The position numbers and the translations under genes are program-made. This document shows positions 1 to 44,664 of a stretch of DNA of 54,968 bases, one piece after another; position 1 is the first letter of the stretch; each line of letters begins with the position of its first letter. Source of the stretch: a virus (lineage: Duplodnaviria > Caudoviricetes); IMG/VR virus record IMGVR_UViG_3300020201_000026, positions 1 through 54,968 of that record. One strand, 5' to 3'. The notes under the pieces are model-generated. The model searched no databases. It was given only the letters and a program-made list of their open reading frames with translations, and had not been told where the DNA came from.

Positions 1-32
1 CGCGTTTTTTTTGTTATTTGTCCTTTTTTCAT
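1..32 (-). CDS. N-terminus of a gene truncated by the window edge; paralog of 4584-4886
   Basis: ATG at 32-30 reads MKKGQITKKT, matching KKGQITKKT near the start of ORF 4584-4886. It has the A-rich leader typical of this arm. Confidence 0.65.
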   Translation of the reverse strand, partial: MKKGQITKKT

Positions 33-61
33 TTGTTTGGTTTAAAGGGTTAATAAAATAT

Positions 62-517
62 CTATGAAAGATACGGGTTTACGAACAAGCTACTAAAAGT
101 AACATATGACCCGTTTTCTAACCTAAACACGACTATATCGTCTTTTACAGTTAAAAATGTCGCTTTCATTTCAACAATTTTATTCCACACGCTGTCAATC
201 ATCTCAAGCGTAGGAAAATACTTGAAAGACAACAAGTGCTTTTGTCCGTTTTGTTCGCACAAGTCCCATTCAACATCGTATTTGTGGGCATGTTGAATCT
301 TCAACACTTCCCACGAATCGCTGTGTGCCTTGTCGGTCATTCCTCTGGTGTATCTTCCAAACGGAATCAAAACTTGGGTTATTGTGTTTGCCTTAGTGTT
401 GTCATAATTTATTTCAATGACCCCATAAGGTTTTTTGTAGTGAAGTCCTCTAATGGTTATTTTTGGACAGGTTCTTTCTCCGTCCAACACCCATTTTGAA
501 CTTAATATGTTTGTCAT
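62..517 (-). CDS. hypothetical protein (151 aa)
   Basis: ORF with leader TTTAAACCAATTAAAAAATG, co-oriented with the arm; no motif recognised. Confidence 0.75.
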   Translation of the reverse strand: MTNILSSKWVLDGERTCPKITIRGLHYKKPYGVIEINYDNTKANTITQVLIPFGRYTRGMTDKAHSDSWEVLKIQHAHKYDVEWDLCEQNGQKHLLSFKYFPTLEMIDSVWNKIVEMKATFLTVKDDIVVFRLENGSYVTFSSLFVNPYLS

Positions 518-540: not shown

Positions 541-568
541 TAAGCAGTTTACACTCTTGCTTAGGAGT
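541..568 (-). ncRNA. small H-type pseudoknot, copy 1 of 3
   Basis: Minus strand ACUC-C-UAAGCA-A-GAGU-GUAAAC-UGCUUA. Stem ACUC/GAGU; loop UAAGCA pairs with UGCUUA. The stem covaries with copies at 8794 and 9133. Confidence 0.6.
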
Positions 569-626
569 TGTTTTAAACCTCTTTATAAAAGCGGTTTAAA
601 ACGTAATAGGTGAGGACAATACTATA

Positions 627-962
627 CTACCTATTACTGTATTTTCTCCAATTGTATAGTTGTGGGGCAAGTAAGTGGTAGCAATATTTAGCCACCGCCC
701 AAGTGTCTTTTTTCCAATTGTATTTTTCTTTGTCAAGTAATCTTGAACAGAACTGAGCTACATAACAGGAGTTTTCCTCCCAATCAAAGCAGTTGTTTTC
801 AATCTGCCAAGCTATTAAATCATAGCTTGAATGTGCATACAACCACGCGTATTGTTGCCCGTGTTCAATGAACGCTAAGTGGACATTTAACTTTCCATTT
901 TCAAATCGCAATCGCCATTCATCACAAGGCACTGTTGTTAGGTTTTCTAATTCAATTATCAT
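627..962 (-). CDS. hypothetical protein (111 aa)
   Basis: ORF with A-rich leader; aromatic-rich; no motif recognised. Confidence 0.75.
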   Translation of the reverse strand: MIIELENLTTVPCDEWRLRFENGKLNVHLAFIEHGQQYAWLYAHSSYDLIAWQIENNCFDWEENSCYVAQFCSRLLDKEKYNWKKDTWAVAKYCYHLLAPQLYNWRKYSNR

Positions 963-1024
963 GTTTTTGTTTTTTGGGTTAAAAATTAATAAAATAGGGC
1001 TTACTTAAAAGCAAACCCTATCAG

Positions 1025-3844
1025 TTATCCTAACATTGCCTGACGAAGCATCACTGCTAAATCAGATTCAGACTCTGTTTCGTCTTTTCTGTCTTCAATT
1101 AGTTGGTTAAGCAACCTGACAGCTTGCACGTGAAATACATACATACTCAAAGAGCTATCAAACTCCTTTAACACGTCTTCAAGGGCTTCACAAAGAAGGC
1201 TTTGTTTTGCGGTTAAAGAGCGGTAGTCTATCTCATCAAGATATGCGTTTATCTCACCAATGGAGTGTTCAAACTCTTGGCAATAGTAGAAGTCTAACGC
1301 CATAGTTTTTAAACTCTCCTTTTCTGACTCAGCAATATCCCTTTGGTCAGTCTTTCTCCAGTAAAAGGCATCTTTTTCTTGTGCTATGTACTTATACACA
1401 TCAGCACTTAACAAAGAATTGTACTCCACTGTAAAAGAGTCAATTAGTTCTTCAACAGACAACTTGAAATCTACTTTTACGCAGGCTTTGTAGCTGTTTA
1501 TCACTAATCTTTCTTTTTCTATTTCCTCCTGCTTTTTTTCATTAGCGACATAGTCGTAATACAGCTGAGATAACTCAGTGTGAGACAGAACACCTTGTCC
1601 TTTATAACAATAAAAGACAACAACCCCTCCTAATTCTAAAGGAAGAGTGAGAAAGTTAGACAAAGAACTAACTGCAAGCAATATCCTTTCTGCTGAGTAT
1701 GACACAGAACTACCTTTGTAGCTGTCTGGTAGTATCTCGTTAACAAAGGAGTAGTGCTTTTTAATATCCTCAATAGATTTCTCTAAAGATTCAATTATCA
1801 GCTCTTTTTGTGATTCTACACTGGCAAAAGTAGGCACAGTTTTAATAACTAATACCACTTTATCTTCTCCTAACAATTCAAGTTTGGTATTAACCACTTT
1901 GATTTGGGATTGATAGTTAGGTAAATAGATACTGCTCACTGCTTTTGCGTGAATCTCCTCTGTTGTTAAAGGAGTAGAAATCCTCATTTCAGCGTTGCCC
2001 ATTGCATATACCGTAACAGTTTCACTATCAGCGTTAAACACTCTTTCTTTAGTGAATAAAGAAGGGTCAAGCTTGTAAACAAGCGCAACTACTGCCTCGT
2101 TAAAATACGTAACGTTAGTAAGAAAAGTAGCTCTTCCAATACTTGTTACTGTACCTGTTGTGTAGGAGAAATAACTCCCTTCAGAAGCAGCCGACACTTT
2201 CGTATCAAATGCTACCCTGTATGCTTTACAGCCTTTAGCTGCAACCACAACAACGGAACACAATTGCTCAGTTACTTGCTGAGTGTCTGTCATATACCCT
2301 AATTGGCTTAGAATAATAGACAGCTTTCTGTATCCCTCAAGGGCTTCTTGCTCCGCCATATAAAAAGTCATTGACTCTTTTGCTTGGCGTACTTCTTTGT
2401 TGTTCTTTTTAGCCACGATGCTGTCGTACAACTTTATATTGGCGTAAGAAGTAGACACAAACTTTGAAAAAAACTTGTTAGTTTTATCTTCGTCTGCTTT
2501 TTTGTCTATGACTGTTCCAAATTTAGTGTACGCCTCAATGGCAAGAAACTTTGCAACTTCTTTGGCGATGCCAAGTTCCATTGCATAATAGAGAATTAGA
2601 GCTTGGTTATACTCTAACATCGTCAATAGAGGAGCAATCCTTTTACCTTTTACAGTAAAACTATTGTTGCTTTCTATTACGTCATTTGCACGAAGCTCTT
2701 CAAGAACCTCGTTGTACTCCATTTGGTTATATGGAGTTATCAGATTTTCGTTATCTACACCTTGTGATAAAGTGTTAACAACAAACTCTCTTGCGTCCAA
2801 CAAGTCAATGGCTCTTAATGGATACTGTTGACGAGAATCGTAAGAACCTATAAGAGTGTATTTGTAAGGCATAGAACCTTGTTCAAGTTGCATTCTTCCA
2901 ATACGCCCAGCAGCTTGCGCCACCTCAGCTTTTGAAACGCTGTAAGTAGTCAATTGCTTGACTCCTTTAACGTTTACCATATGTCGTATTTGACCTAAGT
3001 CAATCACAGACTTTATCCATTTAGGATACGTTAAGCCTGTACGACCTATGTTAGTTGCAATGATAACAGCTTGTCCTTCTTTATGCTGGAGATAAGCCAT
3101 ACGGTCTTTACTGTCCATTTCACCGTGCATAAGATACACAGTTACTTTAGATGAAGCCTTAGTCGCATATGCTTCAACAATAGCTTGTACTTCAGCTATC
3201 TCCTTCTTTCCAGGACAGATAACTATGAAGTTGTACCCTTCTTCAAGTCTTGTATTGACAGTTGAAGTTAGGTTTTGAGAAGTTATCACACTCCCAAACA
3301 CAGGCGAGCCTTCTACACTGAAGCTTGTAGTAGTAGCTTCCACTACATTACAGTTTAGATAAGAAGCAAACATTGTACCTTGCACAGTCGCAGACATAAT
3401 CAAGACTTTACAGCCTAATTCTCTTGCTTTGTACAAGTTGATAATAGTGTTAAGCTCTAATTCGTGAGCTTCATCTATTACCACTAAAGTAGATGACATA
3501 TCCTCTTTGCCTAATTTAGACGTGAGGATTCCTTCGGTCATATACACAACAGAAGCATTAGCATTGCTGCTTGTACCTCTTCCTGTGATATGCCCTATCA
3601 TATCGGGTTGTCCACAGCCTTCAATAGCTGTAGCAGAGTTGCTTTCTGCTTGGCTAATGCGTGGCTGCGAGACATACACTTTGCTTATACCCTCTACGGC
3701 AGTCAGCAAGTGCAGTGGCAAGTATATGGTCTTACCTGTCCCTGTAGGACTTGTAAGAACACATCTGCCAACAGTGTTGAGCTGAGAGGCAATGCTCTCG
3801 GCATAACGAGCTATAGGCAGCTCTTTAAACCATTTTTTCTCCAT
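1025..3844 (-). CDS. DEAH/RHA-family (HrpA/HrpB-like) SF2 helicase with long C-terminal extension
   Basis: Motifs in order: I SPTGTGKT, Ia SQPRI, Ib TEGIL, II DEAHE, III SAT, IV PGKKEI, V ATNIGRTGLT, VI QAAGRIGR. Confidence 0.9.
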   Translation of the reverse strand: MEKKWFKELPIARYAESIASQLNTVGRCVLTSPTGTGKTIYLPLHLLTAVEGISKVYVSQPRISQAESNSATAIEGCGQPDMIGHITGRGTSSNANASVVYMTEGILTSKLGKEDMSSTLVVIDEAHELELNTIINLYKARELGCKVLIMSATVQGTMFASYLNCNVVEATTTSFSVEGSPVFGSVITSQNLTSTVNTRLEEGYNFIVICPGKKEIAEVQAIVEAYATKASSKVTVYLMHGEMDSKDRMAYLQHKEGQAVIIATNIGRTGLTYPKWIKSVIDLGQIRHMVNVKGVKQLTTYSVSKAEVAQAAGRIGRMQLEQGSMPYKYTLIGSYDSRQQYPLRAIDLLDAREFVVNTLSQGVDNENLITPYNQMEYNEVLEELRANDVIESNNSFTVKGKRIAPLLTMLEYNQALILYYAMELGIAKEVAKFLAIEAYTKFGTVIDKKADEDKTNKFFSKFVSTSYANIKLYDSIVAKKNNKEVRQAKESMTFYMAEQEALEGYRKLSIILSQLGYMTDTQQVTEQLCSVVVVAAKGCKAYRVAFDTKVSAASEGSYFSYTTGTVTSIGRATFLTNVTYFNEAVVALVYKLDPSLFTKERVFNADSETVTVYAMGNAEMRISTPLTTEEIHAKAVSSIYLPNYQSQIKVVNTKLELLGEDKVVLVIKTVPTFASVESQKELIIESLEKSIEDIKKHYSFVNEILPDSYKGSSVSYSAERILLAVSSLSNFLTLPLELGGVVVFYCYKGQGVLSHTELSQLYYDYVANEKKQEEIEKERLVINSYKACVKVDFKLSVEELIDSFTVEYNSLLSADVYKYIAQEKDAFYWRKTDQRDIAESEKESLKTMALDFYYCQEFEHSIGEINAYLDEIDYRSLTAKQSLLCEALEDVLKEFDSSLSMYVFHVQAVRLLNQLIEDRKDETESESDLAVMLRQAMLG

Positions 3845-3867
3845 TGTTTTATGTTTTTAAAGGTTTG

Positions 3868-3919
3868 TGAATAAGATTGGATTTGAACCAATTCTCCATA
3901 GGAGCAACCTTGCTTATTC
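3868..3919 (-). ncRNA. 52-nt tRNA-like element lacking a D-stem and anticodon loop
   Basis: Minus strand: acceptor GAAUAAG/CUUAUUC plus discriminator A; T-arm AUUGG-UUCAAAU-CCAAU; linker CAAGGUUG containing GG; mini hairpin CUCC-UAU-GGAG. Confidence 0.7.
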
Positions 3920-3924
3920 AATAA

Positions 3925-3953
3925 AAGTAGGGGCTACAAGAAGCAACCCCTTA
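3925..3953 (-). terminator. post-stop hairpin (terminator or processing site)
   Basis: Minus strand GGGGUUGC-UUCUU-GUAGCCCC followed by UACUUUU, just after the stop of 3957-4379. A similar hairpin lies at ~993-1020. Confidence 0.45.
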
Positions 3954-3956
3954 TAA

Positions 3957-4379
3957 CTAAAACATCTCTCTCCACTGTACGTGTTGAAAGACCGTTGTTT
4001 TGGTAACACTCCCGTCGGGGTTTACCAGCTCAACGGACTTTCTTTCGGTGGTTGACTGAATGCACACAAGAGAGGTATGTGCGTTTTTGTAGTGGGCATA
4101 CAAGTTAGCCCACATTGTCAGGGTAGGCTCACCTGTGCAATAAAAGTGAGTTGCCTCTTCCATTATTGCTTCTGAGACTATCCTCAGAGCAAGCAACTGT
4201 ATTTCTTCTAAAGTTGCTGTTGCTGAAATGGCTGACATTTGAGCTTGCAACTCAGGGTCTACCTCTTTCAAGGTAACAATTGAGTCTTCGTGGTCTTTGC
4301 CAAATTGCGAGTTAAATCCTTCAACTTGAGACTCTGTCAAAACGTGGCTAAACGCGACAAATAACTTCTTGTTTTTCAT
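3957..4379 (-). CDS. csx20: Csx20-like CARF-related protein, putative ring nuclease / anti-CRISPR
   Basis: N-terminal LFVAFSHVLTESQ, central G-E-P-T-L-T, and C-terminal STTERKSVE...DGSVTKTTVFQHVQWR match my recollection of the Csx20 pattern (FSHxLTxxQ ... STTxR ... K.s.F.HvrFR). Confidence 0.75.
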   Translation of the reverse strand: MKNKKLFVAFSHVLTESQVEGFNSQFGKDHEDSIVTLKEVDPELQAQMSAISATATLEEIQLLALRIVSEAIMEEATHFYCTGEPTLTMWANLYAHYKNAHTSLVCIQSTTERKSVELVNPDGSVTKTTVFQHVQWREMF

Positions 4380-4510
4380 ACTTTTATTTTTAAAGGTTTT
4401 AGCAACGATGCACCTTTATCCATTTGTTTCGCACACCCGTCCTGTGTGCTACATCTACCTCGTAGATGAGTTTATAAAGGGTTAGATACAACCTTTATAA
4501 ACTGACTTTG

Positions 4511-4542
4511 CAAAGTTAGTGAAATAACTTCGCATTTGCAAA
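4511..4542 (-). promoter_or_regulatory. Bacteroidota housekeeping-sigma promoter driving csx20-like and helicase genes
   Basis: Minus strand TTTG (4542-4539), 20-nt spacer, TAACTTTG (4518-4511): the -33/-7 consensus TTTG-N19-21-TAnnTTTG. It sits just downstream of a terminator. Confidence 0.75.
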
Positions 4543-4549
4543 CAAATTA

Positions 4550-4580
4550 AAAAGCCTTCCAATTAAATCGGAAGGCTTTT
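4550..4580. terminator. intrinsic terminator (bidirectional-looking)
   Basis: AAAAGCCTTCC-N9-GGAAGGCTTTT perfect inverted repeat 3 nt after the stop of 4584-4886. A related hairpin lies at 9710-9737. Confidence 0.75.
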
Positions 4581-4583
4581 GGG

Positions 4584-4886
4584 TTAAAATGTTGCTAAGT
4601 AAGCTCTCCTTGCCACAGATTCATTCAAGTTTAACCATACGAGGTACTCCTCGTTGGTCATGTCTTGAATGAAGATATATTTTATGCAACTTCTTGCCCC
4701 ACGAGAGCCATAATACGCTTCTTTTACTTCACTTGTGTCTTGTAGCCAATGGCTAAGGGGAGTCTCCTTAGATGTGGAGCAATTAAGCTCCAATAAATCA
4801 CTGAGATACAATTTACCTATTGACCCACTTCTGCGAATTGGGTAATTTGTTTTTTTTGTTATTTGCCCTTTTTTTGACTTTGTCAT
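4584..4886 (-). CDS. hypothetical protein (100 aa)
   Basis: ORF; N-terminus shared with the truncated gene at 1-32. Confidence 0.75.
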   Translation of the reverse strand: MTKSKKGQITKKTNYPIRRSGSIGKLYLSDLLELNCSTSKETPLSHWLQDTSEVKEAYYGSRGARSCIKYIFIQDMTNEEYLVWLNLNESVARRAYLATF

Positions 4887-4930
4887 ACGTTTAAATTGTT
4901 TAAATTGTTAATAAAAAACAGTACGTTTAA

Positions 4931-4970
4931 AAAACTCTTATCAACAGTATGTCTTGGTTGATAAGAATTT
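4931..4970 (-). terminator. hairpin with U-tail after 4975-5487
   Basis: Minus strand AAAAUUCUUAUCAAC-loop-GUUGAUAAGAGUUUUU, with a G-U wobble only on the minus strand. Confidence 0.55.
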
Positions 4971-4974
4971 TGAA

Positions 4975-5487
4975 TTATTTTGTGAGGAGAAAATGACTGT
5001 TTGCTTGTGTTTTGTATAACACAAAACAGTCATTTGCCGCTAAGGCTGTCCCTGAATTGCTCCCTTTCTCCTCAATAAAATATTGGCGAGTTTCAAAGAA
5101 CACAAGGGTATCTTCTCCTTCTTTTTGAAAGACTTGGAGCATTTGTCCTTTGTCAGTCCCTACTTGGTCTTCCCAATCCTTTCTACAAGATAAGCCCTCG
5201 TAGATATGTTGGTTTATGTGATGAAACTCACACGCCATTGGCAGTGTGATTTCTTTTCTGTTTACCAAAAATGTCTCTGGATTGATTTCAAAGGACACCT
5301 TGTATTCGTATGGACTACCCTCCGAGTAGTCGTCCTTTGCAGAAATCTCATACGGCTCTGAGTTACTCGCAAACCCAATAACTAGTTCGTCGTGATAGCT
5401 TACACTTGCCATTAAGTGCTTGCCGCCCTCAATGAGGGTCTCGCCTGTTATGGCGTTTTTTATTAAAATTTCCGTGAAGTTTGACAT
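4975..5487 (-). CDS. hypothetical acidic protein (170 aa)
   Basis: ORF; no motif recognised. Confidence 0.75.
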   Translation of the reverse strand: MSNFTEILIKNAITGETLIEGGKHLMASVSYHDELVIGFASNSEPYEISAKDDYSEGSPYEYKVSFEINPETFLVNRKEITLPMACEFHHINQHIYEGLSCRKDWEDQVGTDKGQMLQVFQKEGEDTLVFFETRQYFIEEKGSNSGTALAANDCFVLYKTQANSHFLLTK

Positions 5488-5497
5488 TGTTTTTGGA

Positions 5498-5545
5498 TTT
5501 AGGGTTTAGGGTTTAGGGTTTAGGGTTTAGGGTTTAGGGTTTAGG
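5498..5545 (+). repeat. (TTTAGGG)6 + TTTAGG tandem repeat
   Basis: Read directly; lies 10 nt upstream of the ATG of the minus-strand gene 4975-5487. Confidence 0.95.
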
Positions 5546-5610
5546 CTACGATTAAGAAAAAGGCTCTTTAATTTAATTGTAGAACCCTTTTCTAATTTAA
5601 TTTTAGCGCA

Positions 5611-5982
5611 CTATACTATTGAAAACCTGCTGATGTACAGGTTTTCTTCTTGGTCTTGGTCTTCGTCTTCAAGAACCCATTCGTGGGCTATGGTTTTGAT
5701 GCGTGGGAATCTTGCGATTCTTCCACACTCAACTCCAAAAACGTACAACTCAATAGTGCATTGAGCTGTCAAGTCTACTCTCAACCCACCATATTGGACG
5801 GCATACGCCCAGTTTATATTTGTTTCTAACAGAAACAAGGCAACCTCATATTGCACTTGTTCTGTGATTGGTGTGAACTTGTTAATCCCTCCATAAATGG
5901 AGTTTTTTAACTGTTCTACCATTTCTTCCTTTTCTTCTTGGTCAGCAGAGTTGTAATTTCTGCTGAATTCATAATTGTCCAT
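5611..5982 (-). CDS. hypothetical protein, paralog of 9747-10133
   Basis: YEVALFLLETNINWAYAVQYGGLRV aligns with WEIAFCLLKASPEWAYAVQFGKLNV. Confidence 0.8.
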   Translation of the reverse strand: MDNYEFSRNYNSADQEEKEEMVEQLKNSIYGGINKFTPITEQVQYEVALFLLETNINWAYAVQYGGLRVDLTAQCTIELYVFGVECGRIARFPRIKTIAHEWVLEDEDQDQEENLYISRFSIV

Positions 5983-6009
5983 AGTTTTTTGTTTTGTTTA
6001 ATGGTTTAA

Positions 6010-6041
6010 TAAAACAGGACTTACATCTTACGACTGCCTGT
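6010..6041 (-). repeat. 32-nt intergenic hairpin repeat, copy 1 of 3
   Basis: TAAAACAGGACTTACATCTTACGACTGCCTGT; near-identical copies at 6705-6736 and 7875-7906. Confidence 0.9.
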
Positions 6042-6050
6042 TGTTAGTTT

Positions 6051-6680
6051 TTAGATAGACTTCAGCATTTCTGCGAGTTTCTCTAACGTTTGAAGTCTTT
6101 CCGATACTACGGATTGAGCAGCGTAGATGACGGATTTCAACGCACTTGGCAGGGAGGTTACGGCATGAGGGGTCATGTCATAGTCCCCGAATAAAACACC
6201 AAGAGCAACCTCGTAAGGGAGCTTTGTAAAGTCTTCCCCTCCAAAACCGTTAAAGATGTTAGCCAAAGATACTCGCTCCATTTCTTCTCCATTGATTTTT
6301 GCAGAGGTTACTATTTCCCCTGAAACTATCCTTTCAGCAACCGTTTTGCAAACGAATGCAAAAAGGTTGAGTTCACCTCCATAACAATCACTGTCGTCTG
6401 CCAAATGGTTTTCAATAGCAACATTATTAATGGTTATTGTTGCTACTTCTACTACGCTGTACTTTTCCCCCCAAAAACTTGCTTGTGCGAGACTTGCAAG
6501 CATGGGTTGTCCGTTAGGGTTGAATAACCCCTCTATAATAGTTTGCGACAAAACTACATCACTGTTTATTGCCGCTTGTGTCTTGGTCTTTGCCATTAAA
6601 ACAAAAGCTGTTGCTTCTGCTTCGGTGGGGAAGAAGTACTCATTTGTTTTTTGAGTACGTTGGTTTTTGATAGTGAACAT
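6051..6680 (-). CDS. hypothetical protein, tandem paralog of 6740-7360
   Basis: Aligns end to end with the neighbouring gene (MFxIKN..KTNEYFF, NGxPMxAxL, LPYxVAxGVLFGDY, RLQTLExLAxMLKSI). Confidence 0.85.
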   Translation of the reverse strand: MFTIKNQRTQKTNEYFFPTEAEATAFVLMAKTKTQAAINSDVVLSQTIIEGLFNPNGQPMLASLAQASFWGEKYSVVEVATITINNVAIENHLADDSDCYGGELNLFAFVCKTVAERIVSGEIVTSAKINGEEMERVSLANIFNGFGGEDFTKLPYEVALGVLFGDYDMTPHAVTSLPSALKSVIYAAQSVVSERLQTLEKLAEMLKSI

Positions 6681-6704
6681 TTTTTTACTTGTTTAAAAGG
6701 TTAA

Positions 6705-6736
6705 TAAAACAGGACTTACATCTTGCGACTGCCTGT
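6705..6736 (-). repeat. 32-nt intergenic hairpin repeat, copy 2 of 3
   Basis: TAAAACAGGACTTACATCTTGCGACTGCCTGT. Confidence 0.9.
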
Positions 6737-6739
6737 GTG

Positions 6740-7360
6740 TTAAATAGATTTTAGCATTTTTGCTAAATCTTCTAACGTTTGAAGTCTTTGCGATACTACT
6801 CTTTGAGCGGCGTAAAAGATTGATTCCAATGCGCTTTTCAATGCCATTGCTGGGTGAGATTTTGTTTTGTAATCTCCAAACAAAACCCCACAGGCAACGC
6901 TGTAAGGAAGCTTTGTGGGGTCTTCCTCCCCAAAGTCGTTAAAGATACTTATGAGCGAAACCCGCTCTTTTTCCTCTCCGTTCACTTGAACGGAAATGAC
7001 ACTCTCCCCCAATATTATCATTTCTTGAACTTTTTTTGAAATAAAATCAGAGAGCTTTCCCCCCAAAAATTCGCCACTGTCGTCCGCCAAGTCGTTGTCA
7101 ATGGCAACTCCATTGATAAGCACCTTTGCACTTTCAATGACTTCGTATTTTTGCTCCAAAAACGAAGCTTTTTCAAGGAACGCCGACATTGGCTTTCCAT
7201 TAGGGTGGAACACCCCTTGCACTATTTCACTCACGTCCCCTCTGTCAATGACAGATTGTGTTTTTTCTTTTGCCATTACGAGAAAAGCGGTAGCTTCTTC
7301 GGCAGTTGCAAAAAAATACTCGTTGGTCTTTCCTGACCGTTTGTTTTTTATACTAAACAT
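6740..7360 (-). CDS. hypothetical protein, tandem paralog of 6051-6680
   Basis: Aligns end to end with 6051-6680. Confidence 0.85.
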   Translation of the reverse strand: MFSIKNKRSGKTNEYFFATAEEATAFLVMAKEKTQSVIDRGDVSEIVQGVFHPNGKPMSAFLEKASFLEQKYEVIESAKVLINGVAIDNDLADDSGEFLGGKLSDFISKKVQEMIILGESVISVQVNGEEKERVSLISIFNDFGEEDPTKLPYSVACGVLFGDYKTKSHPAMALKSALESIFYAAQRVVSQRLQTLEDLAKMLKSI

Positions 7361-7412
7361 AGTGTTTTTTTGTTTAAAAGGCTTAATAAAATAGCACGTT
7401 TATCTTAAACGT

Positions 7413-7866
7413 ACAAATAAACACTAAAACCACGAGCAATCTTGGCTCTCTGGTTGCAACACCAAACTCACACACGGTGAGGAACTATGTGTGGTCTTAG
7501 GGTTTAAGGTAGGTTTGAGCCTATAACTTTCTTGCTGTTACACAAGCCTGCTCAAACAGGATTAAGTTTTGCTAAACTTACAAAATAACATTGGACAACT
7601 TTCATTTAGCTAAATGAAGGCTTATGTTGTCCCAATGCCTCTTATCGGTCAATTACAAAATGATAGATTCTAATTCTTGACCTTTTACAGTCCCCCGTTC
7701 ATTACTCGGGCTATTTCGGAGAATAGCAAAAAACAGACGAGGCTTATGAAGCATTTTCGTGTCTGTCTTACTCCTTACTCAGTTCTAACGTATCTATCAC
7801 AGTTAGAACATATATGCACACCTGTCTTACAGGATTCAACGCTTGCATAATGCGTTATTTATTTGT
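7413..7866 (-). ncRNA. candidate large (~450 nt) structured ncRNA
   Basis: No ORF >=60 aa; termini complementary (ACAAATAAA/TTTATTTGT); at least 8 internal hairpins; two candidate loop-loop pseudoknots. Confidence 0.6.
7445..7488 (-). repeat. 44-nt repeat (two-hairpin / three-way junction module), copy 1 of 2
   Basis: Matches 8571-8614 at 43 of 44 positions; the single difference is in a hairpin loop. Confidence 0.9.
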
Positions 7867-7874
7867 TTATGAGA

Positions 7875-7906
7875 TAAAACAGGACTTACATCTTGCGAAT
7901 GCCTGT
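7875..7906 (-). repeat. 32-nt intergenic hairpin repeat, copy 3 of 3
   Basis: TAAAACAGGACTTACATCTTGCGAATGCCTGT. Confidence 0.9.
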
Positions 7907-7908
7907 TG

Positions 7909-8433
7909 TTACTTGATTTGGTGGGTTTTACACCACCCTGATTTTTTTATTGCCAAAAGGCGTAAGTAATCGGAAGAGTAGGGGTTGTCATATCCTGACG
8001 ACCACTGGTCGTCATACCCTGAGGCCCAATGAGAGTTCCTCGTGAAAGAGAAACCCAATGCCAAACTCTTTAGAATCTTTAAATGTTCCTCTCTGTCAAA
8101 AGAGGTTATTACCTGTAAGCGGTCGCAATGCAGTGAGATTTCAGCCTCCAATTTGCTGGTGCAGGAGCTTCCTTTCCAGCTATGACCCCAGCTAATCATG
8201 CCACTCCATTTTTTAAATCGTTCCGCCCATTTCTTGCAGAACGGTTCCCAGCCAGTGGCTTTGGTCTTCCCAGAAACACAAACAGTCGTCCCCGACGATA
8301 GGTTGTACGTAATGGTAACCTTGTACCGCTCTTTGTTGCGGTATAAAGTTGCAATATGATATTCAATGTACGAGATTGAATTTCGTACATTGACAGTCGC
8401 TACGGGCGTTGCAAATAATTGGATTGCTATCAT
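7909..8433 (-). CDS. hypothetical protein (174 aa, Trp/Ser-rich)
   Basis: ORF with AACAAAAAATG leader. Confidence 0.75.
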   Translation of the reverse strand: MIAIQLFATPVATVNVRNSISYIEYHIATLYRNKERYKVTITYNLSSGTTVCVSGKTKATGWEPFCKKWAERFKKWSGMISWGHSWKGSSCTSKLEAEISLHCDRLQVITSFDREEHLKILKSLALGFSFTRNSHWASGYDDQWSSGYDNPYSSDYLRLLAIKKSGWCKTHQIK

Positions 8434-8570
8434 TTTTTGTTCTGCTTACTCAATGCAGAAACACTCTGTCTTTGTCCCGAACGGGAAACAGGTGTTAGCA
8501 GTTTCTCGTAAATTCTACGAGGAAGATTTAGAGTTTTCTCTCTTTTGTTATCTACCGTACAATAATCACA

Positions 8571-8614
8571 GCTCTCTGGTTGCAACACCAAACTCACACC
8601 CGGTGAGGAACTAT
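8571..8614 (-). repeat. 44-nt repeat, copy 2 of 2
   Basis: GCTCTCTGGTTGCAACACCAAACTCACACCCGGTGAGGAACTAT. Confidence 0.9.
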
Positions 8615-8712
8615 ACTATACACTGCAAAAATGCAACATCACACCTAAGCCGAAGCTCTCCCTTTAGATTTTTCAGGGATTAAGGTGCCAACCTCCTAAG
8701 AGGTATTTAAAT

Positions 8713-8821
8713 ACGTCTTTCTTGTTCTTTCACTGTCGCATTAACCCCCGTAGGAGAAAAGACGTTGCAACAGCGAGAGGTTTTTCCTCTATCAAAGCAG
8801 TTTATAGTCCTGCTTAGGACT
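8713..8821 (-). ncRNA. ~110-nt structured repeat (small pseudoknot + hairpin + nested pseudoknot), copy 1 of 2
   Basis: Direct repeat of 9050-9160 with compensatory changes in two stems. Confidence 0.7.
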
Positions 8822-8835
8822 TGCTCTTATCGGGG

Positions 8836-9021
8836 TTAATCCCAATAAGAGCTATGACCCCCTTTTCCATACGCTGCCATACGACAGCCGGGATTTCTTT
8901 TTATTGCAGCCCTTGAGGTCTTTGCAGGGCTTTTCTTTTTGGGACGACAAGCTTTTCTCCTGCCCATTGCTTGACGAGGGTGAAAGTCATTCTTGTCTTC
9001 CACAATCTCGTGGATTTTCAT
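8836..9021 (-). CDS. small basic hypothetical protein (61 aa)
   Basis: K/R-rich ORF with the arm-typical leader TAACCTTAAAAC...ATG, flanked by the 110-nt repeats. Confidence 0.6.
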   Translation of the reverse strand: MKIHEIVEDKNDFHPRQAMGRRKACRPKKKSPAKTSRAAIKRNPGCRMAAYGKGGHSSYWD

Positions 9022-9049
9022 GATGTCTTGTGTTTTAAGGTTAAATAAT

Positions 9050-9160
9050 GCACTTTTCTTGTTCTTTCACTGTCGCATTAACTTCCGTAGAAGAAAAAGT
9101 GCTGCAACAATTAGAGGTTTATTTCCCCTATCAAAGCAGTTTATAGTCCTGCTTAGGACT
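9050..9160 (-). ncRNA. ~110-nt structured repeat, copy 2 of 2
   Basis: Direct repeat of 8713-8821 with compensatory stem changes. Confidence 0.7.
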
Positions 9161-9174
9161 TTTGACGATTAATC

Positions 9175-9606
9175 CTACAGGGCTTTAACCCAGTACTCCA
9201 TTGAACTTAACCATGTAACACACATCATTGGACTAAGTTCCTCCGCCAGCGATGTCCAATCAGGGGCATACTGATTGTCCCCTTTTGTGGGGTAGCCCAG
9301 TTGGGCATACCCGTACAAATATGTCCACATTTGAAGTCGCACGTCCTCAAAAGAGCAGTAAAGGTGGGTTGCCCCCACTTTTGTTGCCTCTTTCACGATT
9401 TCAAGAGCCAAAGCTTTCACTTGTACAAGTGCGAGCTTGGCACTTTCTGTGTCAAATCCTATCATGGTTGCAATTTCTGTACCCTCGTACCCTTGAGCAT
9501 CTTCATGGTGGCAACCATTGATATGGCTGCCGTACTGTAAGCGGAACATGTCCTCTTGGCGAGGGGTCAATACAGTTTGAGACGCTACGAATAATATCTT
9601 TTTCAT
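9175..9606 (-). CDS. divergent paralog of the Csx20-like protein
   Basis: LFVASQTVLTPRQ vs LFVAFSHVLTESQ; LALEIVKEA..GATHLYC vs LALRIVSEA..EATHFYC; LQMWTYLY vs LTMWANLY. The C-terminal STT/HV segment is lost. Confidence 0.7.
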   Translation of the reverse strand: MKKILFVASQTVLTPRQEDMFRLQYGSHINGCHHEDAQGYEGTEIATMIGFDTESAKLALVQVKALALEIVKEATKVGATHLYCSFEDVRLQMWTYLYGYAQLGYPTKGDNQYAPDWTSLAEELSPMMCVTWLSSMEYWVKAL

Positions 9607-9629
9607 ATTTTTATTTATTTAAGGTTTAT

Positions 9630-9707
9630 TTTCTTGCGAACCACCGCTTGCTCTATGTTTCCATAGACTTGTGAGACTCTCGTATTCCGAAGAACTTAGA
9701 GGTAGTT
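9630..9707 (-). ncRNA. GAAA-tetraloop / 11-nt-receptor RNA element, copy 1 of 2
   Basis: Receptor variant UCUAAG/UACGA capped by UUCG; hairpin UCUAUG-GAAA-CAUAGA; closing stem AACUAC/GUGGUU. Aligns without gaps to 10160-10237. Confidence 0.7.
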
Positions 9708-9709
9708 GT

Positions 9710-9737
9710 AAAAGCCCCCCAGTTAATCGGAGGGCTT
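9710..9737 (-). terminator. probable intrinsic terminator
   Basis: AAGCCC...GGGCUUUU hairpin after the stop of 9747-10133; resembles 4550-4580. Confidence 0.6.
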
Positions 9738-9746
9738 GTTGTTACT

Positions 9747-10133
9747 TTATTTGAGGAAGAATGTGTTTTCTACTACTTCGTCGCCGAAGTAATCTCGTTC
9801 GTCCCCTGTGTAAGGGACGGTTTTAGAGGTACAACCAATTGACGTTGTAGGAAACTTAATGTCCCCTAAATCCACTCCGCAAGTTGACAGCGAAACTACT
9901 CCGTTCTTTCCTATATACACGTTCAATTTGCCGAATTGAACAGCATACGCCCATTCTGGCGACGCTTTCAATAGGCAAAACGCTATTTCCCACTTGATGT
10001 CGTAGGATATTATGTCAAAATGTCCGTTTGCCATTTTCAGCGATTTGGCAAGGCTTTTAGCCATCTTGCCTCTTTCTGTAACTGTGCCGTATACGAAACG
10101 GCTTGTGTATACGTCTTTTTTTGAAACTTTCAT
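9747..10133 (-). CDS. hypothetical protein, paralog of 5611-5982
   Basis: Shared WAYAVQ(F/Y)G core. Confidence 0.8.
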   Translation of the reverse strand: MKVSKKDVYTSRFVYGTVTERGKMAKSLAKSLKMANGHFDIISYDIKWEIAFCLLKASPEWAYAVQFGKLNVYIGKNGVVSLSTCGVDLGDIKFPTTSIGCTSKTVPYTGDERDYFGDEVVENTFFLK

Positions 10134-10159
10134 AATACTTATTTATTTATTGAGTTTAA

Positions 10160-10237
10160 TTTCTTGCGAACTACCGCTTGCATTACTTTTCAGTAACCTT
10201 GTGAGACTCCCATATCCTACTGGACTTAGGGGAAACC
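10160..10237 (-). ncRNA. GAAA-tetraloop / 11-nt-receptor RNA element, copy 2 of 2
   Basis: Canonical receptor CCUAAG/UAUGG; hairpin GUUACU-GAAA-AGUAAU. Confidence 0.7.
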
Positions 10238-10293
10238 GATTGTATATGTACCTCAACGCCGAAATCCCAATGACGGATTCGTGTGAGAAACAA

Positions 10294-10389
10294 GAAATAG
10301 TTACATACTGTATGGGTATGTAGCTATTTCATTAGTTACGTGTACGGTTAAACACGTAACATATACCCTAAACTTTTAATTTAGGGTAT
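10294..10389. repeat. three consecutive inverted repeats
   Basis: GAAATAGTTACATAC/GTATGTAGCTATTTC, GTTACGTGT/ACACGTAAC and ATACCCTAAA/TTTAGGGTAT. Confidence 0.85.
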
Positions 10390-11063: not shown

Positions 11064-11668
11064 ATAGCCAAAGGCAGGAGGGGTGAATAGACATCAGACT
11101 CAATACTCCTTCTTAAAAAAATATTTTTTTTGCTGGGGTCAGTTGTCATTTTGCCTTGTGTGTTAGTTTGCTGTGTGTTAGTTTTACTGTAGAGGGGGGT
11201 ATTTGAGGGGGTGTTGTTTTATGTTTTTCTTTGGGTGGTTTCTTTGGCTATGGTATTATAGTTATAAGCTCTATCAAGGGGCAAGCCCCTTAAAAAGTTG
11301 TTTTTGGAGTACCTGATCCAGTCCTTTTTTGGGGAGAGTGTAGTATCTTTTGTTTAATGTGGAGATAGACACGTTCCACTACAATATAAATAAGGGTATG
11401 CTTTTACTGCAAAATGTTTATGCGGATTATCAGCCAGAGCTTCGTATCAGAACCTTATGAAAGAGGATGCGAAGATGTTTATGCCTTTAGCACTGAAGGA
11501 TTACCGCAAGAGGGGAGTTTCAACCGCCCATTTTGTTGCCCTTTTATCTTAATACCTTTCGTTGCCAAAAGGTAACCGAGAATCTAAAAAAGAATCGTTA
11601 TATATATAACTTATTTTTGACATAAAAGGTTCAGTTATTTTGAAAATAAATTAAAAATATTTTTTATT

Positions 11669-11700
11669 TTTGGTAGTATCGTTTTGTTGTGTTATATTTG
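11669..11700 (+). promoter_or_regulatory. Bacteroidota-type promoter for the tRNA / right arm
   Basis: TTTG (11669-72), 20-nt spacer, TATATTTG (11693-700), 8 nt before the tRNA. Confidence 0.75.
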
Positions 11701-11708
11701 CACAACAA

Positions 11709-11781
11709 GTCCTTATAGCTTAACTGGAAAAGCGTTACCCTTCTAAGGTAAGGAGTACAAGTTCAAATCTTGTTAGGGACA
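11709..11781 (+). tRNA. tRNA-Arg(TCT)
   Basis: Acceptor GTCCTTA/TAGGGAC+A; D-arm GCTT/AAGC; anticodon arm TTACC-CTTCTAA-GGTAA; T-arm ACAAG-TTCAAAT-CTTGT; CCA not encoded. Confidence 0.92.
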
Positions 11782-42129: not shown

Positions 42130-44664
42130 ATGGCTAATTGTAGCATAAAACCACAAGTCCAAGAAAGTATTAAAAGAGCAACACACGTAAAAAACATCTT
42201 AGAAGGACAGATAGCGTCAGACAGTGTAGATTTTACAAACCTGCTTATCGCTTTTGCCGCTTACGGGTTTCCCTCATTAGAAGGTCGCGTGAAGATAGAG
42301 TCAAAATACGCAAGTTCTTTTTACTTACCTGGAATGATAGACGATATACAAGTCTCAACAGGGGCAACTTTTGCAAAGGTTAAAGATTTCCTCAATAGCG
42401 AAGACCCAAGAGCGATAAAACTCCTTGAAAAATCAGATGCTTTTTACGACCACCTTAAAGCTTTCAACAACAAGGACGACATAGAGTTGTTTGAGAAGAT
42501 AAAGAACTGGATAGCTTTAAACCGCACAGGGGTTACAACCATTGTCCCTGTTGATTATGCAGACGCAGATATCATAGTGCAGCAACCACTTGATTTTACA
42601 AGCAGAGTGCAAATGATGAGCCACATCATAGACACTATTGAAGACTCTACTTTAAGAGCTAAGGCAGCAGTGTTCCTTGACTATATAAGCACAGGGAACA
42701 TTAATGCCCTAATAGACAAGGAACAAGCCACAGGCACTGACTTTGTAAGTAAACTGTCTAATGCTGTGAAGAACCAAACAAGAGTCCCCGTACAAGTGAG
42801 AACAGAGCTTGTTATGGAAGGAGGCATTACAGTTGCTAAACACAAGGTGTATATGGGAGATGAGCTAATAGGAACATTACAAGACCCTGCTCTGTTTCAA
42901 CACGCTAACACCAATGAACTCAAACAGACACACGACAAGGCTGTAGAGATGTGGGGACTTGAACACGTAGAAAAAAGATTAGCTGCGTTTGGCAATGCTA
43001 TTGCTGAATTACACCGAATCAAAACAGTCAGCTTGGAATTAGTCGGCTTAGGCAAAGGTAACTTCACACACAACAAAAAGAATACTTTTTTAACAGGTAT
43101 CACATTGTCAAGTCTTCAAACAGACGAATACAAAAGCAATTTGCCTGCTAACCTTGAAATAGGAAAAAAAGTACTAATAGACTGGTCTAAGTGGCGAATG
43201 ATAGCTGGAATAAAGATGTCCCAAAAAGAACGAAAAGAGCTATCTGGATTTGTTGAAAAAATAGGGGGCATAACTGAGTTAATGAACGCGACAGAAACTA
43301 CAGTACAAGATGTAGACATTGCTCTTTTAAAAAAGTACCAGCAGTACTACGAAGAAAACAAATCATACCTAAAGCCCTTTGTGGTTTATTCTTTTACAGG
43401 GCAGGACTTAGAACCCCCTACTATTACTCCTAACCAGTTAGTTTCTCAGTACTACGAAAACTTGTTGGAGTTTATGGATAAAAGAGGGCGGATAATGTTA
43501 GACACTCCGTCTTTTACTTTTTCCGAGCTAATGAAAAAGTTTAGCACGAACTCCCCTATTAAACAGTATATTGACGAGTTGCAAGAAAGCGATAAGGAAG
43601 TAGATAAAAACGTGAACAGAGCCAAGTTAGGCTTTGCGTTTGTTTCTTCAGCAAGCACCCACAAGACATTAGAGACAATGCAATCACTGGTAACCAGTAA
43701 CCGTATAAAGGTTTTCAATACTGACAAAGACGGGGTACATAGAAACTCTTTTGCAGTAGCTATGACAGCAGACGTAAATGGCGATTCTTCAAGCCCAAAG
43801 TCAATCTTGGAAATGCTTAAGGAAACAATAAAAGAAGGTAACTTTGACAGTAAACTTGGTCATTCATCAATTGGAGGAATCCTTAGTTCAGACGGTGCTT
43901 TTAGTCTAAAACAGGACGATGAGATATTAACCCATCTTTTTTCTTTTCTACCGCTGGTAAAAGTAGGTAAAAAATACAAACACGCTTTAGACTATTTGTT
44001 TCAAGAACTTGCTGATTTCAATGAAGACTATAAGAAGTTTTCTAATGAAACACTCAAAGGGGGCAAAAACATAACGGATTATTTGTTCAGTAAAAGGGCA
44101 TCTCCTGCAAACATAATCAACAGAATGGTCGTTATGAAAGTAGGGGGCAAAGAAACAAGCAACCCTATCTATGACGAGCAAGGGGTGTTTGTTACAGTAG
44201 CCAGAAGGATAGGAACAAAGGCAGAGGAAATATTTGAGATAGAAAAGGCTTTAAAACGGAACAATAAAGACGTTGAAATGAGGTATCAAGCTAATGCTCT
44301 TTTACAAAAGGACAGTGGCAAAGCGGCTATAAAAAACCAAAACAGTGTAGGGGGCTTTGCTATTGTGGAAAGTGCCAAAATGGCTAAGTTAGGAATAGAG
44401 TACACTGTTCCGTCAATCCCTACTGAACCAAACATTTTATTAAGCGTTAAAGAGAGTAACCCTGTGGCGGCTGAAAGAACTACAATGGAAACTTTTCAAA
44501 ACATAGTAGCCCACAAAGAGGTGTCTTCTACAATAAAAAAAGCAGTACAAGTATATATAGATATAAACGACACATCTCCTAAAGCTATTGCAGACGTTGA
44601 CGAACTTCTTTTAGAGGAGTTTGAAGACAGAGACCAAATCCCCCCACTTTGTAACGTTACATAA
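42130..44664 (+). CDS. large virion protein adjacent to the RNA polymerase
   Basis: 844 aa, TAATG-coupled to the RNAP gene; no motif recognised. Confidence 0.6.
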   Translation: MANCSIKPQVQESIKRATHVKNILEGQIASDSVDFTNLLIAFAAYGFPSLEGRVKIESKYASSFYLPGMIDDIQVSTGATFAKVKDFLNSEDPRAIKLLEKSDAFYDHLKAFNNKDDIELFEKIKNWIALNRTGVTTIVPVDYADADIIVQQPLDFTSRVQMMSHIIDTIEDSTLRAKAAVFLDYISTGNINALIDKEQATGTDFVSKLSNAVKNQTRVPVQVRTELVMEGGITVAKHKVYMGDELIGTLQDPALFQHANTNELKQTHDKAVEMWGLEHVEKRLAAFGNAIAELHRIKTVSLELVGLGKGNFTHNKKNTFLTGITLSSLQTDEYKSNLPANLEIGKKVLIDWSKWRMIAGIKMSQKERKELSGFVEKIGGITELMNATETTVQDVDIALLKKYQQYYEENKSYLKPFVVYSFTGQDLEPPTITPNQLVSQYYENLLEFMDKRGRIMLDTPSFTFSELMKKFSTNSPIKQYIDELQESDKEVDKNVNRAKLGFAFVSSASTHKTLETMQSLVTSNRIKVFNTDKDGVHRNSFAVAMTADVNGDSSSPKSILEMLKETIKEGNFDSKLGHSSIGGILSSDGAFSLKQDDEILTHLFSFLPLVKVGKKYKHALDYLFQELADFNEDYKKFSNETLKGGKNITDYLFSKRASPANIINRMVVMKVGGKETSNPIYDEQGVFVTVARRIGTKAEEIFEIEKALKRNNKDVEMRYQANALLQKDSGKAAIKNQNSVGGFAIVESAKMAKLGIEYTVPSIPTEPNILLSVKESNPVAAERTTMETFQNIVAHKEVSSTIKKAVQVYIDINDTSPKAIADVDELLLEEFEDRDQIPPLCNVT

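Follow-up and report, generated by a model that had tools for sequence, protein, structure and literature searches.

The first 11,100 nucleotides (nt) of IMG/VR virus record IMGVR_UViG_3300020201_000026 (G000; linear, 54,968 base pairs (bp), estimated to be 33% complete; the whole record is referred to here as the window) carry a run of 14 minus-strand genes and 14 spacers. A first-pass annotation had described nearly every spacer of this arm as holding a folded RNA element. We found that the elements are discrete repeats on the sense strand, and that three of them are kept by compensatory changes: a 27-nt pseudoknot, a larger nested pseudoknot and a 74-nt leader with a GAAA tetraloop and a receptor-like helix. 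The 27-nt pseudoknot is a mobile module, placed between same-strand genes in many unrelated phages. The picture of a folded-RNA arm was partly confirmed: at least six structured families had been claimed, and base-pair support was obtained for three of seven kinds, whereas the other kinds are repeats, a minihelix or a gap. The reading originally attached to it, an arm organised by an RNA toolkit, is partly supported.

The small pseudoknot has three copies in the window:

9134..9160, minus strand: copy 1 (45.4 bits with model R3)

8795..8821, minus strand: copy 2, with the same sequence as copy 1, beginning 14 nt past the stop of gene 9021..8836

542..568, minus strand: copy 3 (48.6 bits with model R3); ends 24 nt ahead of the ATG at 517

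Its loop CUAAGCA pairs with UGCUU past a UAAAC linker, and the 27 nt are predicted to adopt a textbook H-type geometry. Stem 1 has 4-5 bp and stem 2 has 5 bp; loops 1 and 2 have 2 nt and 1 nt, and loop 3 has the sequence nUAAAC. The second pair of stem 1 is G-C in copies 1 and 2 and C-G in copy 3. The 25-nt search pattern TCCTAAGCANGANTNTAAACTGCTT leaves two bases free, one before TCC and one in GANT, and these pair with each other in 48 of 49 distinct copies (G-C 23, C-G 16, A-T 4, T-A 3, T-G 2). An nhmmer search over approximately 1 megabase of loci, which is blind to pairing, added variants compensated at other pairs. In stem 1 a T-A pair is replaced by A-T and an A-T pair by C-G; in stem 2 two A-T pairs are replaced by G-C; G-U wobbles also occur. 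In the alignment of 64 rows, 52 of them chosen by the pattern, which fixes stem 2 and half of stem 1, 98.9% of 531 cells were paired and five of the nine pairs had double changes. None of 500 shuffles reached this level of pairing, and no slid register came close. The alignment argues that both stems covary, and the three copies that had been claimed stand.

The pattern had 63 exact matches in 62 IMG/VR loci. The contigs bearing the pseudoknot range from 2 to 184 kilobases (kb); among them are complete genomes of 36, 98-103 and 179-184 kb. Among 185,579 species genomes there were six matches, all in contigs of metagenome-assembled or draft genomes. Near-copies were found in the crAss-like phage cr52_1 and in the T4-like cyanophage S-CRM01 (host on record, Synechococcus sp. 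LC16), where the element lies 2 nt past tRNA-Tyr and 27 nt ahead of g172. Model R3 detected one to five copies per record in 49 of the 50 records searched; the remaining one, the 244.7-kb phage G001 described below, had none. The motif is thus strongly tied to viruses, and its hosts belong to several phyla.

H-type pseudoknots of the preQ1-I riboswitch are marked by a long loop 2, which holds the ligand-reading C. We rejected a preQ1-I assignment for the 27-nt pseudoknot, as there was no match at E up to 10 and its loop 2 is a single nt. Rfam 15 as a whole gave no match to the pseudoknot, including a 76-nt search at E up to 10. In literature searches by sequence string, long motif strings were not found and the short-string papers inspected were unrelated, the supplements of a catalogue of putative structured RNAs from IMG/VR (PMC10690425) and of 10.1101/2020.03.07.982082 being outside the scope of these searches. 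We regard the 27-nt pseudoknot, which is absent from Rfam, as probably new here.

A same-strand open reading frame (ORF) ends within 60 nt upstream of the pseudoknot in 51 of the 64 copies. The upstream ORF ends 5-11 nt before it in 30 of the 64 and never nearer than 5 nt, and an ORF starts within 60 nt downstream in 37. Same-strand stops pile up 5-8 nt before stem 1 (64 copies, no null comparison), a spacing at which a stop-bound ribosome would meet the knot. By eye, the genes behind the pseudoknot are unrelated to one another, and in two loci (L057, L068) it stands 4-6 nt ahead of tRNAs. TAAAC-type repeat leaders follow a pseudoknot copy in two other phages (L044, L062).

In locus L042 a type III hammerhead (17-75, minus strand) lies 10 nt past the pseudoknot; it scored 42.4 bits with RF00008 (E 1.5e-6), below the gathering score. 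Further hammerheads seen by eye behind the pseudoknot in L055, L056, L072, L061, L085 and L090 were not called by Rfam and we did not accept them; these uncalled cores have CUGAUGA...GAAAC with three stems, stem II being very short. A general 'cut and cap' rule for the pseudoknot was rejected, as a cutter is adjacent in very few of the 64 copies. Two 184-kb pseudoknot-bearing phages also carry a HOLDH RNA (RF02997, above 380 bits; L055 11208-11601, L072 5207-5601), and the tRNA-rich phage of L068 has a tmRNA-like match and an abiF RNA (5162-5265, 6302-6338).

The second supported element is the nested pseudoknot:

9050..9110, minus strand: copy 1, with P1 of 8 bp, a P3 hairpin with UACG loop, and P2 of 8 bp across P1

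8713..8773, minus strand: copy 2, with four of the eight P2 pairs and one P3 pair compensated relative to copy 1

P3 has 4 bp; of the two strands of P2, one lies within P1 and the other beyond it. A hairpin precedes each copy (5 bp at 9113-9129 for copy 1; 8776-8790 for copy 2). With the two upstream hairpins included, all 31 pairs are standard in each copy; five are compensated, four of them in P2, and none is broken. The null gave 2 in 200,000 for the manual fold and 70 in 200,000 for the minimum free energy fold, and the two nested pseudoknots of the first-pass annotation can be retained. Model R2 over 48 pseudoknot-bearing phage records returned one match at E 0.4 and no relative, nor did blastn against INPHARED reveal a relative. 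The helices follow the order P1-P2-P3-P3'-P1'-P2', with all 20 pairs of P1, P2 and P3 standard in both copies. This order is that of ribozymes of the hepatitis delta virus (HDV) type. We nevertheless rejected an HDV-like or theta ribozyme, since the 4-nt UACG loop on P3 leaves no L3/P1.1 and there was no HDV-type Rfam match at E up to 5.

Small and nested pseudoknot together form a module that flanks, on both sides, a gene for a 61-amino-acid (aa) Arg/Lys-rich protein (9021..8836, minus strand). The protein is a candidate RNA-binding partner of the flanking modules. Its Lentiviral_Tat match in Pfam (E 0.049, below cut-off) was taken as reflecting composition only.

The third supported element is the 74-nt leader, the core of a 98-nt repeat family:

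9630..9703, minus strand: copy 1, a receptor-like helix with UUCG hairpin, an invariant linker, a GAAA hairpin and a small hairpin; ends 23 nt ahead of the ATG at 9606

10160..10233, minus strand: copy 2, with canonical CCUAAG...UAUGG receptor and GAAA hairpin; precedes the ATG at 10133

Each copy ends approximately 25 nt ahead of a start codon, and the two genes concerned are unrelated. They align without gaps; 19 columns differ, 12 of them in stems, where they amount to six pairing-preserving double changes. All 17 pairs are standard in both copies, six having changed on both sides and none being broken. In a test in which the fold was predicted from copy 1 without reference to copy 2, five or more compensatory doubles arose in 3 of 200,000 random-substitution trials. 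Neither the linker GAGUCUCACAAG nor the 3' part GCAAGCGGU-GUUCGCAAGAAA varies between the copies. The sequence CCUAAG...UAUGG is the canonical 11-nt receptor partner of the GAAA tetraloop. Copy 2 has it exactly, around a hairpin, with a GAAA-capped hairpin 12 nt further on, and thus carries the sequence of a tetraloop/11-nt receptor pair, whose docking is putative. Copy 1 reads UCUAAG...UACGA, departing at two receptor positions, one compensated and one not, and keeps the GAAA. Covariance model R1 found no relatives of the leader in G001, in distant terminase large subunit (TerL) loci or in pseudoknot-bearing phage records; pattern scans found none in IMG/VR or species genomes, and blastn against INPHARED gave only chance-level matches inside coding sequences. 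The claim of two tetraloop/receptor RNAs holds as regards pairing, GAAA loop and receptor-like motif.

A tRNA-like element stands ahead of the helicase gene of the arm:

3869..3919, minus strand: minihelix with acceptor stem, T-arm and a 4-bp stub, lacking D and anticodon arms

The acceptor stem is 7 bp long, with discriminator A, and the T-arm has 5 bp and a UUCAAAU loop. The element follows a terminator-like hairpin (3929-3951) and ends 24 nt ahead of the helicase ATG; apart from a true tRNA-Arg, nothing else in the window folds in this way. The tRNA model RF00005 aligned to it from end to end with the D and anticodon arms deleted (15.5 bits, compared with a gathering score of 29). The 'tRNA mimic' of the first reading is therefore a true acceptor/T-arm minihelix fold.

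All G-U pairs of the leader (5 of 34 cells) and of the nested pseudoknot (5 of 62 cells) read as such on the minus strand, where most had been noticed; read from the plus strand, each would become an A-C mismatch. The UNCG and GNRA loops likewise read on the minus strand, which is the sense strand of the elements. The statement that copies differ mainly by compensatory changes applies to these two families and fails elsewhere.

Among known families, the Rfam 15 scan of the window had a single match at gathering score, tRNA-Arg (11709-11781, plus strand), which was also the only gene called in the window by ARAGORN. At E up to 5-10 nothing relevant appeared at the minus-arm elements. The elements thus match no Rfam family at gathering score. 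Many spacers hold plain terminator-like hairpins. The hammerhead, pistol and twister models gave no match in the window, and self-cleavage, one of the proposed functions, found no support from any ribozyme family.

Our tentative reading, to which we give slightly less than an even chance, is that the arm is a cassette array of small accessory genes whose messages would be punctuated by cis-acting RNA signals for ends, stability and translation. For the small pseudoknot, the nested pseudoknot, the 74-nt leader and the tRNA minihelix, cis-acting folded RNA is a fair reading. Terminator-like hairpins would mark gene ends, and leaders poor in G and rich in A would precede the genes; at some junctions compact folds may define or shield the ends of the RNA, or adjust translation of the adjoining gene. 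The small pseudoknot would act at the RNA level just past the upstream stop, as an end-protecting or ribosome-facing structure. The minihelix might be cut by host tRNA-processing enzymes, RNase P or Z, and the leader and the nested pseudoknot could, as leader domains, control the genes behind them by binding a factor or ligand. None of these punctuation steps would need the helicase.

The simpler signals are abundant. We found 32 terminator-like hairpins; shuffles gave 9.8 ± 3.2. Examples at minus-strand gene ends, each a G+C-rich hairpin followed by a U-run, are those at 4580, 3951, 1022 and 7414. Such hairpins wholly explain the spacers 963-1024, 4887-4974, 5983-6050 and 6681-6739 and others in part. 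A good share of the claimed elements are ordinary terminator-like hairpins. The leaders ahead of start codons are G-poor and A-rich and lack a Shine-Dalgarno sequence, and CC-n(0-2)-T(1-4)-AAA occurs within 45 nt of 10 of 15 gene starts. Two spacers illustrate the arrangement:

4380..4583, minus strand: spacer with a strong terminator hairpin (4550-4580), a Bacteroidota-type promoter match (4542..4511) and leader hairpins; lowest fold z of the spacers

5495..5546, minus strand: about seven tandem CCCUAAA units, which make up a G-free leader immediately ahead of the ATG at 5487

On the plus strand the latter repeat, CCCTAAA, reads TTTAGGG and is plant-telomere-like.

Several results weigh against the punctuation reading. 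Whole spacers looked well folded when compared with dinucleotide shuffles (12 of 15 at z below -2 on the minus strand), but 18 spacer tiles of 100 nt had a mean z of -2.00 compared with -1.66 for 40 coding tiles of the same arm (Mann-Whitney p 0.18), tile z did not differ between minus and plus strand (Wilcoxon p 0.35), and the fold z of single elements, -0.2 to -2.6, is unremarkable. As an energy claim, 'nearly every spacer folded' is not sustained, and fold energy by itself is no evidence for the elements. Because the like-for-like tile control removes the energy signal, the case rests on repeats and covariation. For the leader and for the nested pseudoknot the covariation comes in each case from one paralog pair, with both copies in this genome. 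The Bacteroidota-type promoter pattern showed no overall enrichment (6 matches, 3.4 expected). A tRNA or minihelix lies within 130 nt of the pseudoknot in one of 64 copies upstream and one of 64 downstream (the scan missed L068), and none of the sequencing runs listed as holding the stretch is on record as RNA.

A bolder version of the punctuation reading we consider doubtful. It would make the 27-nt pseudoknot an uncatalogued functional phage RNA, spread horizontally over at least four host phyla and acting just past stops on a universal host machine, with the leader and the nested pseudoknot as two more new ligand- or protein-sensing RNAs. The host machine would be a ribosome at termination or re-initiation, an exonuclease or RNA polymerase, and the partner of the nested pseudoknot would be the 61-aa Arg/Lys-rich protein.

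The elements could instead act as DNA. In T4-type phages, PeSL cassettes (promoter plus stem-loop) drive recombination or shuffling, and the virion polymerase of phage N4 reads hairpin promoters on extruded single strands; by analogy, the elements would be borders of mobile cassettes or extruded hairpin promoters, and the pseudoknot a recombination or promoter site. The arm has features that such a model would explain: three paralog gene pairs (3957/9175, 5611/9747, 6051/6740), repeated leader blocks, and a hairpin-plus-TTTTATTAACC block that occurs five times (the repeat search writes it as a hairpin plus TTTTATTAA). The spread of the pseudoknot among unrelated phages beside unrelated genes also fits. 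We nevertheless judge action as DNA improbable, since stem 2 of the pseudoknot and the knot-forming P2 covary as well, G-T pairs occur on the sense strand only, and the GAAA/receptor and UNCG loops are RNA motifs. The promoter variant was rejected as a general function of the pseudoknot: both of its stems covary, one to five copies per genome are too few, and hosts ranging from Bacteroidota to cyanobacteria make a common promoter unlikely.

About as improbable is that the leader, the nested pseudoknot or both are a new riboswitch or small self-cleaving ribozyme, with the 27-nt pseudoknot as a minimal aptamer of preQ1-I size. Invariant single-stranded linkers beside covarying stems, the canonical receptor with its GAAA loop and the position of both leader copies in 5' leaders ahead of a start codon are what one would expect of such an RNA, as is the HDV-like helix order of the nested pseudoknot. 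The hammerhead adjoining the pseudoknot in L042 could be added, with its score below gathering; the others were seen by eye only. Yet no Rfam riboswitch or ribozyme matched even at E up to 5-10, P3 is capped by the UACG tetraloop and L3/P1.1 is missing, and an expression platform is not apparent. Behind the elements lie unrelated ORFans without family match, and a pseudoknot that also stands ahead of tRNAs is a misfit with gene control.

The helicase bears on a further alternative:

1025..3844, minus strand: 939-aa DEAH/RHA-like helicase (Pfam DEAD, Helicase_C)

The identification made earlier is sound. The motifs VIDEAHE, GTGKT, SAT and QAAGRIGR are visible, the DEAH sequence forming motif II, and the best PDB matches were HrpB (E 3.6e-21), then HrpA and Prp2. 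The C-terminus had no Pfam HA2 or OB match; some PDB alignments reach residue 450-517. The only close relative, P0002 (63% identity), is encoded by G001, and a metagenome scan with the helicase alignment gave at least one match, at 25% identity. In G001, too, the helicase arm and TerL are arranged divergently. Blastn of the minus arm against G001 matched the helicase only, and no other arm protein is common to both phages. G001 contains none of the three modelled elements and no repeat families of this kind; in place of the modelled elements its arm carries true tRNAs and tRNA-like genes. A true tRNA-Met lies 26 nt ahead of the orthologous helicase ATG, where the window has the minihelix (24 nt), and no sequence relation between the two was seen. 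Because the G001 helicase occurs without the modelled elements, co-occurrence gives no support for a helicase that services the RNAs, as had been proposed; the link is adjacency only. Two of the G001 tRNA-like genes (L003 4662-4782 and 12011-12120) have an insertion of approximately 40-50 nt. The same locus has a protein that is GIY-YIG-like by eye (224-874) and an ORF-poor gap of 1.26 kb (2913-4175).

That some elements are trans-acting products (anti-defence decoys, sponges or small RNAs), possibly remodelled by this helicase, is less probable still than the two alternatives above. ORF-free minus-arm gaps of 548 and 402 nt, the tRNA-like minihelix and the membership of the helicase in an RNA-helicase family would suit such products. 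The crAss-like phage phi14:2 is described as having highly expressed early intergenic non-coding RNAs (10.1101/2020.03.07.982082), a precedent that is also in line with the punctuation reading. The window is crAss-related and has, like phi14:2, long gene-free spacers in an arm of small genes; the likeness is one of gene layout, and the TerL of the window is approximately 27% identical to crAss-like terminases. Opposed to the trans-acting alternative are the lack of homologs or covariation in the long gaps, the absence of the modelled elements from the phage of the helicase's close relative and the absence of RNA among the listed runs; nothing ties any element to a defence system.

The remaining claimed elements are these:

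7438..7488, minus strand: 51-nt repeat copy 1, annotated as a three-way junction, a sequence repeat only

8564..8614, minus strand: 51-nt repeat copy 2, overlapping the GTG start of a possible 55-aa ORF (8597..8430)

6014..6041, minus strand: 28-nt terminator-like hairpin, GUAA loop followed by UUUUAUU

7361..7908, minus strand: 548-nt gap without a minus-strand ORF of 40 aa or more, annotated as an RNA of about 450 nt

The two copies of the 51-nt element are 92% identical, with one inner-base difference and no informative change, and the fold z is -0.18; the repeat is real, the three-way junction is not borne out. The possible 55-aa ORF has no Pfam match. Its stop overlaps the ATG of gene 8433..7909 as ATGA, and its middle resembles, by eye, the strand and helix of a ribbon-helix-helix protein. 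The hairpin at 6014-6041 groups with those at 6709-6736 and 7879-7906, which have GCAA loops. These three GYAA hairpins had been listed as GNRA hairpins; they are a genuine repeat, but the copies are near-identical (two bases differ), end in a terminator-like U-run and provide no support for a structure. They look like weak terminators, and their pattern had no match in IMG/VR. The hairpin block is 88% identical where the adjoining paralog proteins are 59% identical, and is therefore under some constraint. The '~450-nt RNA' reduces to an ORF-free gap: three of its five 100-nt tiles have z above -0.7, and neither a relative nor evidence of a common fold was found.

The view that the arm is mostly ordinary, with terminators and recent local duplications devoid of function, draws on the enrichment of terminator-like sites, the near-identity of the 51-nt and GYAA repeats and a spacer fold energy no better than coding, but is about as improbable as the trans-acting alternative, given stem changes compensated far above chance, a pseudoknot kept across dozens of phages and the higher identity of the hairpin block than of its flanking proteins.

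To our knowledge few folded-RNA processing signals have been catalogued outside model phages, though phage messages are known to be cut or shielded by such RNA. Phage T7 has RNase III processing hairpins between its early genes. As in T7, the window has folded spacer elements in an arm of small genes, with paralogous copies that would cut and stabilise messages. Unlike the long irregular hairpins of T7, these are small pseudoknots, a tetraloop/receptor leader and a minihelix, and cleavage would be expected here only by analogy. H-type pseudoknots with an A-rich third loop include the preQ1-I riboswitch, the T4 gene 32 operator and stimulators of frameshifting and readthrough. The 27-nt motif resembles them in stem and loop sizes and in its UAAAC loop 3, and its distance of 5-11 nt past a stop in 30 of 64 copies is a spacing like that of recoding stimulators; it differs from them in lacking an Rfam match and a long loop 2, and in what follows, which varies and can be a tRNA. 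The GAAA tetraloop/11-nt receptor pair is known from group I and II introns, RNase P and some c-di-GMP-I riboswitches. Leader copy 2 shares the receptor around a hairpin and the GAAA hairpin 12 nt on, but belongs to a stand-alone 74-nt leader that matches no intron, RNase P or riboswitch, and copy 1 is off the receptor at two positions.

In mitochondrial transcripts, tRNAs serve as punctuation. Hammerheads flank genes in polycistronic RNAs and form prophage arrays, according to Perreault et al. 2011 (PMC3088659). RNA modules between cistrons mark processing points in those systems; here the minihelix precedes the helicase gene, and in other phages the pseudoknot adjoins tRNAs or a hammerhead. 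The window differs in having no hammerhead and one tRNA-like element, and most pseudoknot copies have no cutter nearby.

The searchable motif gained is the 27-nt pseudoknot, which has a consensus, covarying stems and dozens of variants from phages of Bacteroidota, cyanobacteria and other hosts. S-CRM01 is a named carrier, in which the role of the pseudoknot is directly testable. Two compact leader RNAs with clean compensatory evidence were gained in addition. Should the target of the motif be the ribosome or RNA decay, organisms without Shine-Dalgarno initiation would gain a portable control part.

The plus arm of the window encodes the terminase large subunit, a portal and a major head protein with crAss-type PHROG matches. 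TerL is approximately 26-28% identical to Crassvirales terminases, which points to a distant crAss-like phage as the source. Apart from distant loci, TerL and helicase peptide scans of IMG/VR returned only G001 and a 13-kb contig whose TerL is identical; TerL relatives at 50-60% identity are present in Logan and ENA. Megablast of the minus arm against INPHARED found nothing, and 13 of its 14 genes have no Pfam or PHROG family match. The repeat search of the arm resolved discrete, sharply bordered families of 40 nt (three copies), 66 nt, 98 nt and 51 nt (two copies each), beside the five-copy hairpin block, and the gene starting at 31 repeats the beginning of gene 4886 (family D18).

Early transcription by a virion RNA polymerase, also suggested in the first reading, is unsupported. 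The plus-strand ORF of 3430 aa (44664-54956), which reaches the window end, has DLDID at residue 1464 in place of the DFDID of crAss-like virion polymerases; it had no PDB or PHROG match, and a DFDxD motif and similarity to gp66 were not found. The two arms are separated by a divergent, gene-free region of 645 nt (11064-11708). Two Bacteroidota-type promoter matches lie in it on the plus strand just upstream of tRNA-Arg (11639-11700), and a sigma-70-like promoter match lies on the minus strand (11284..11255).

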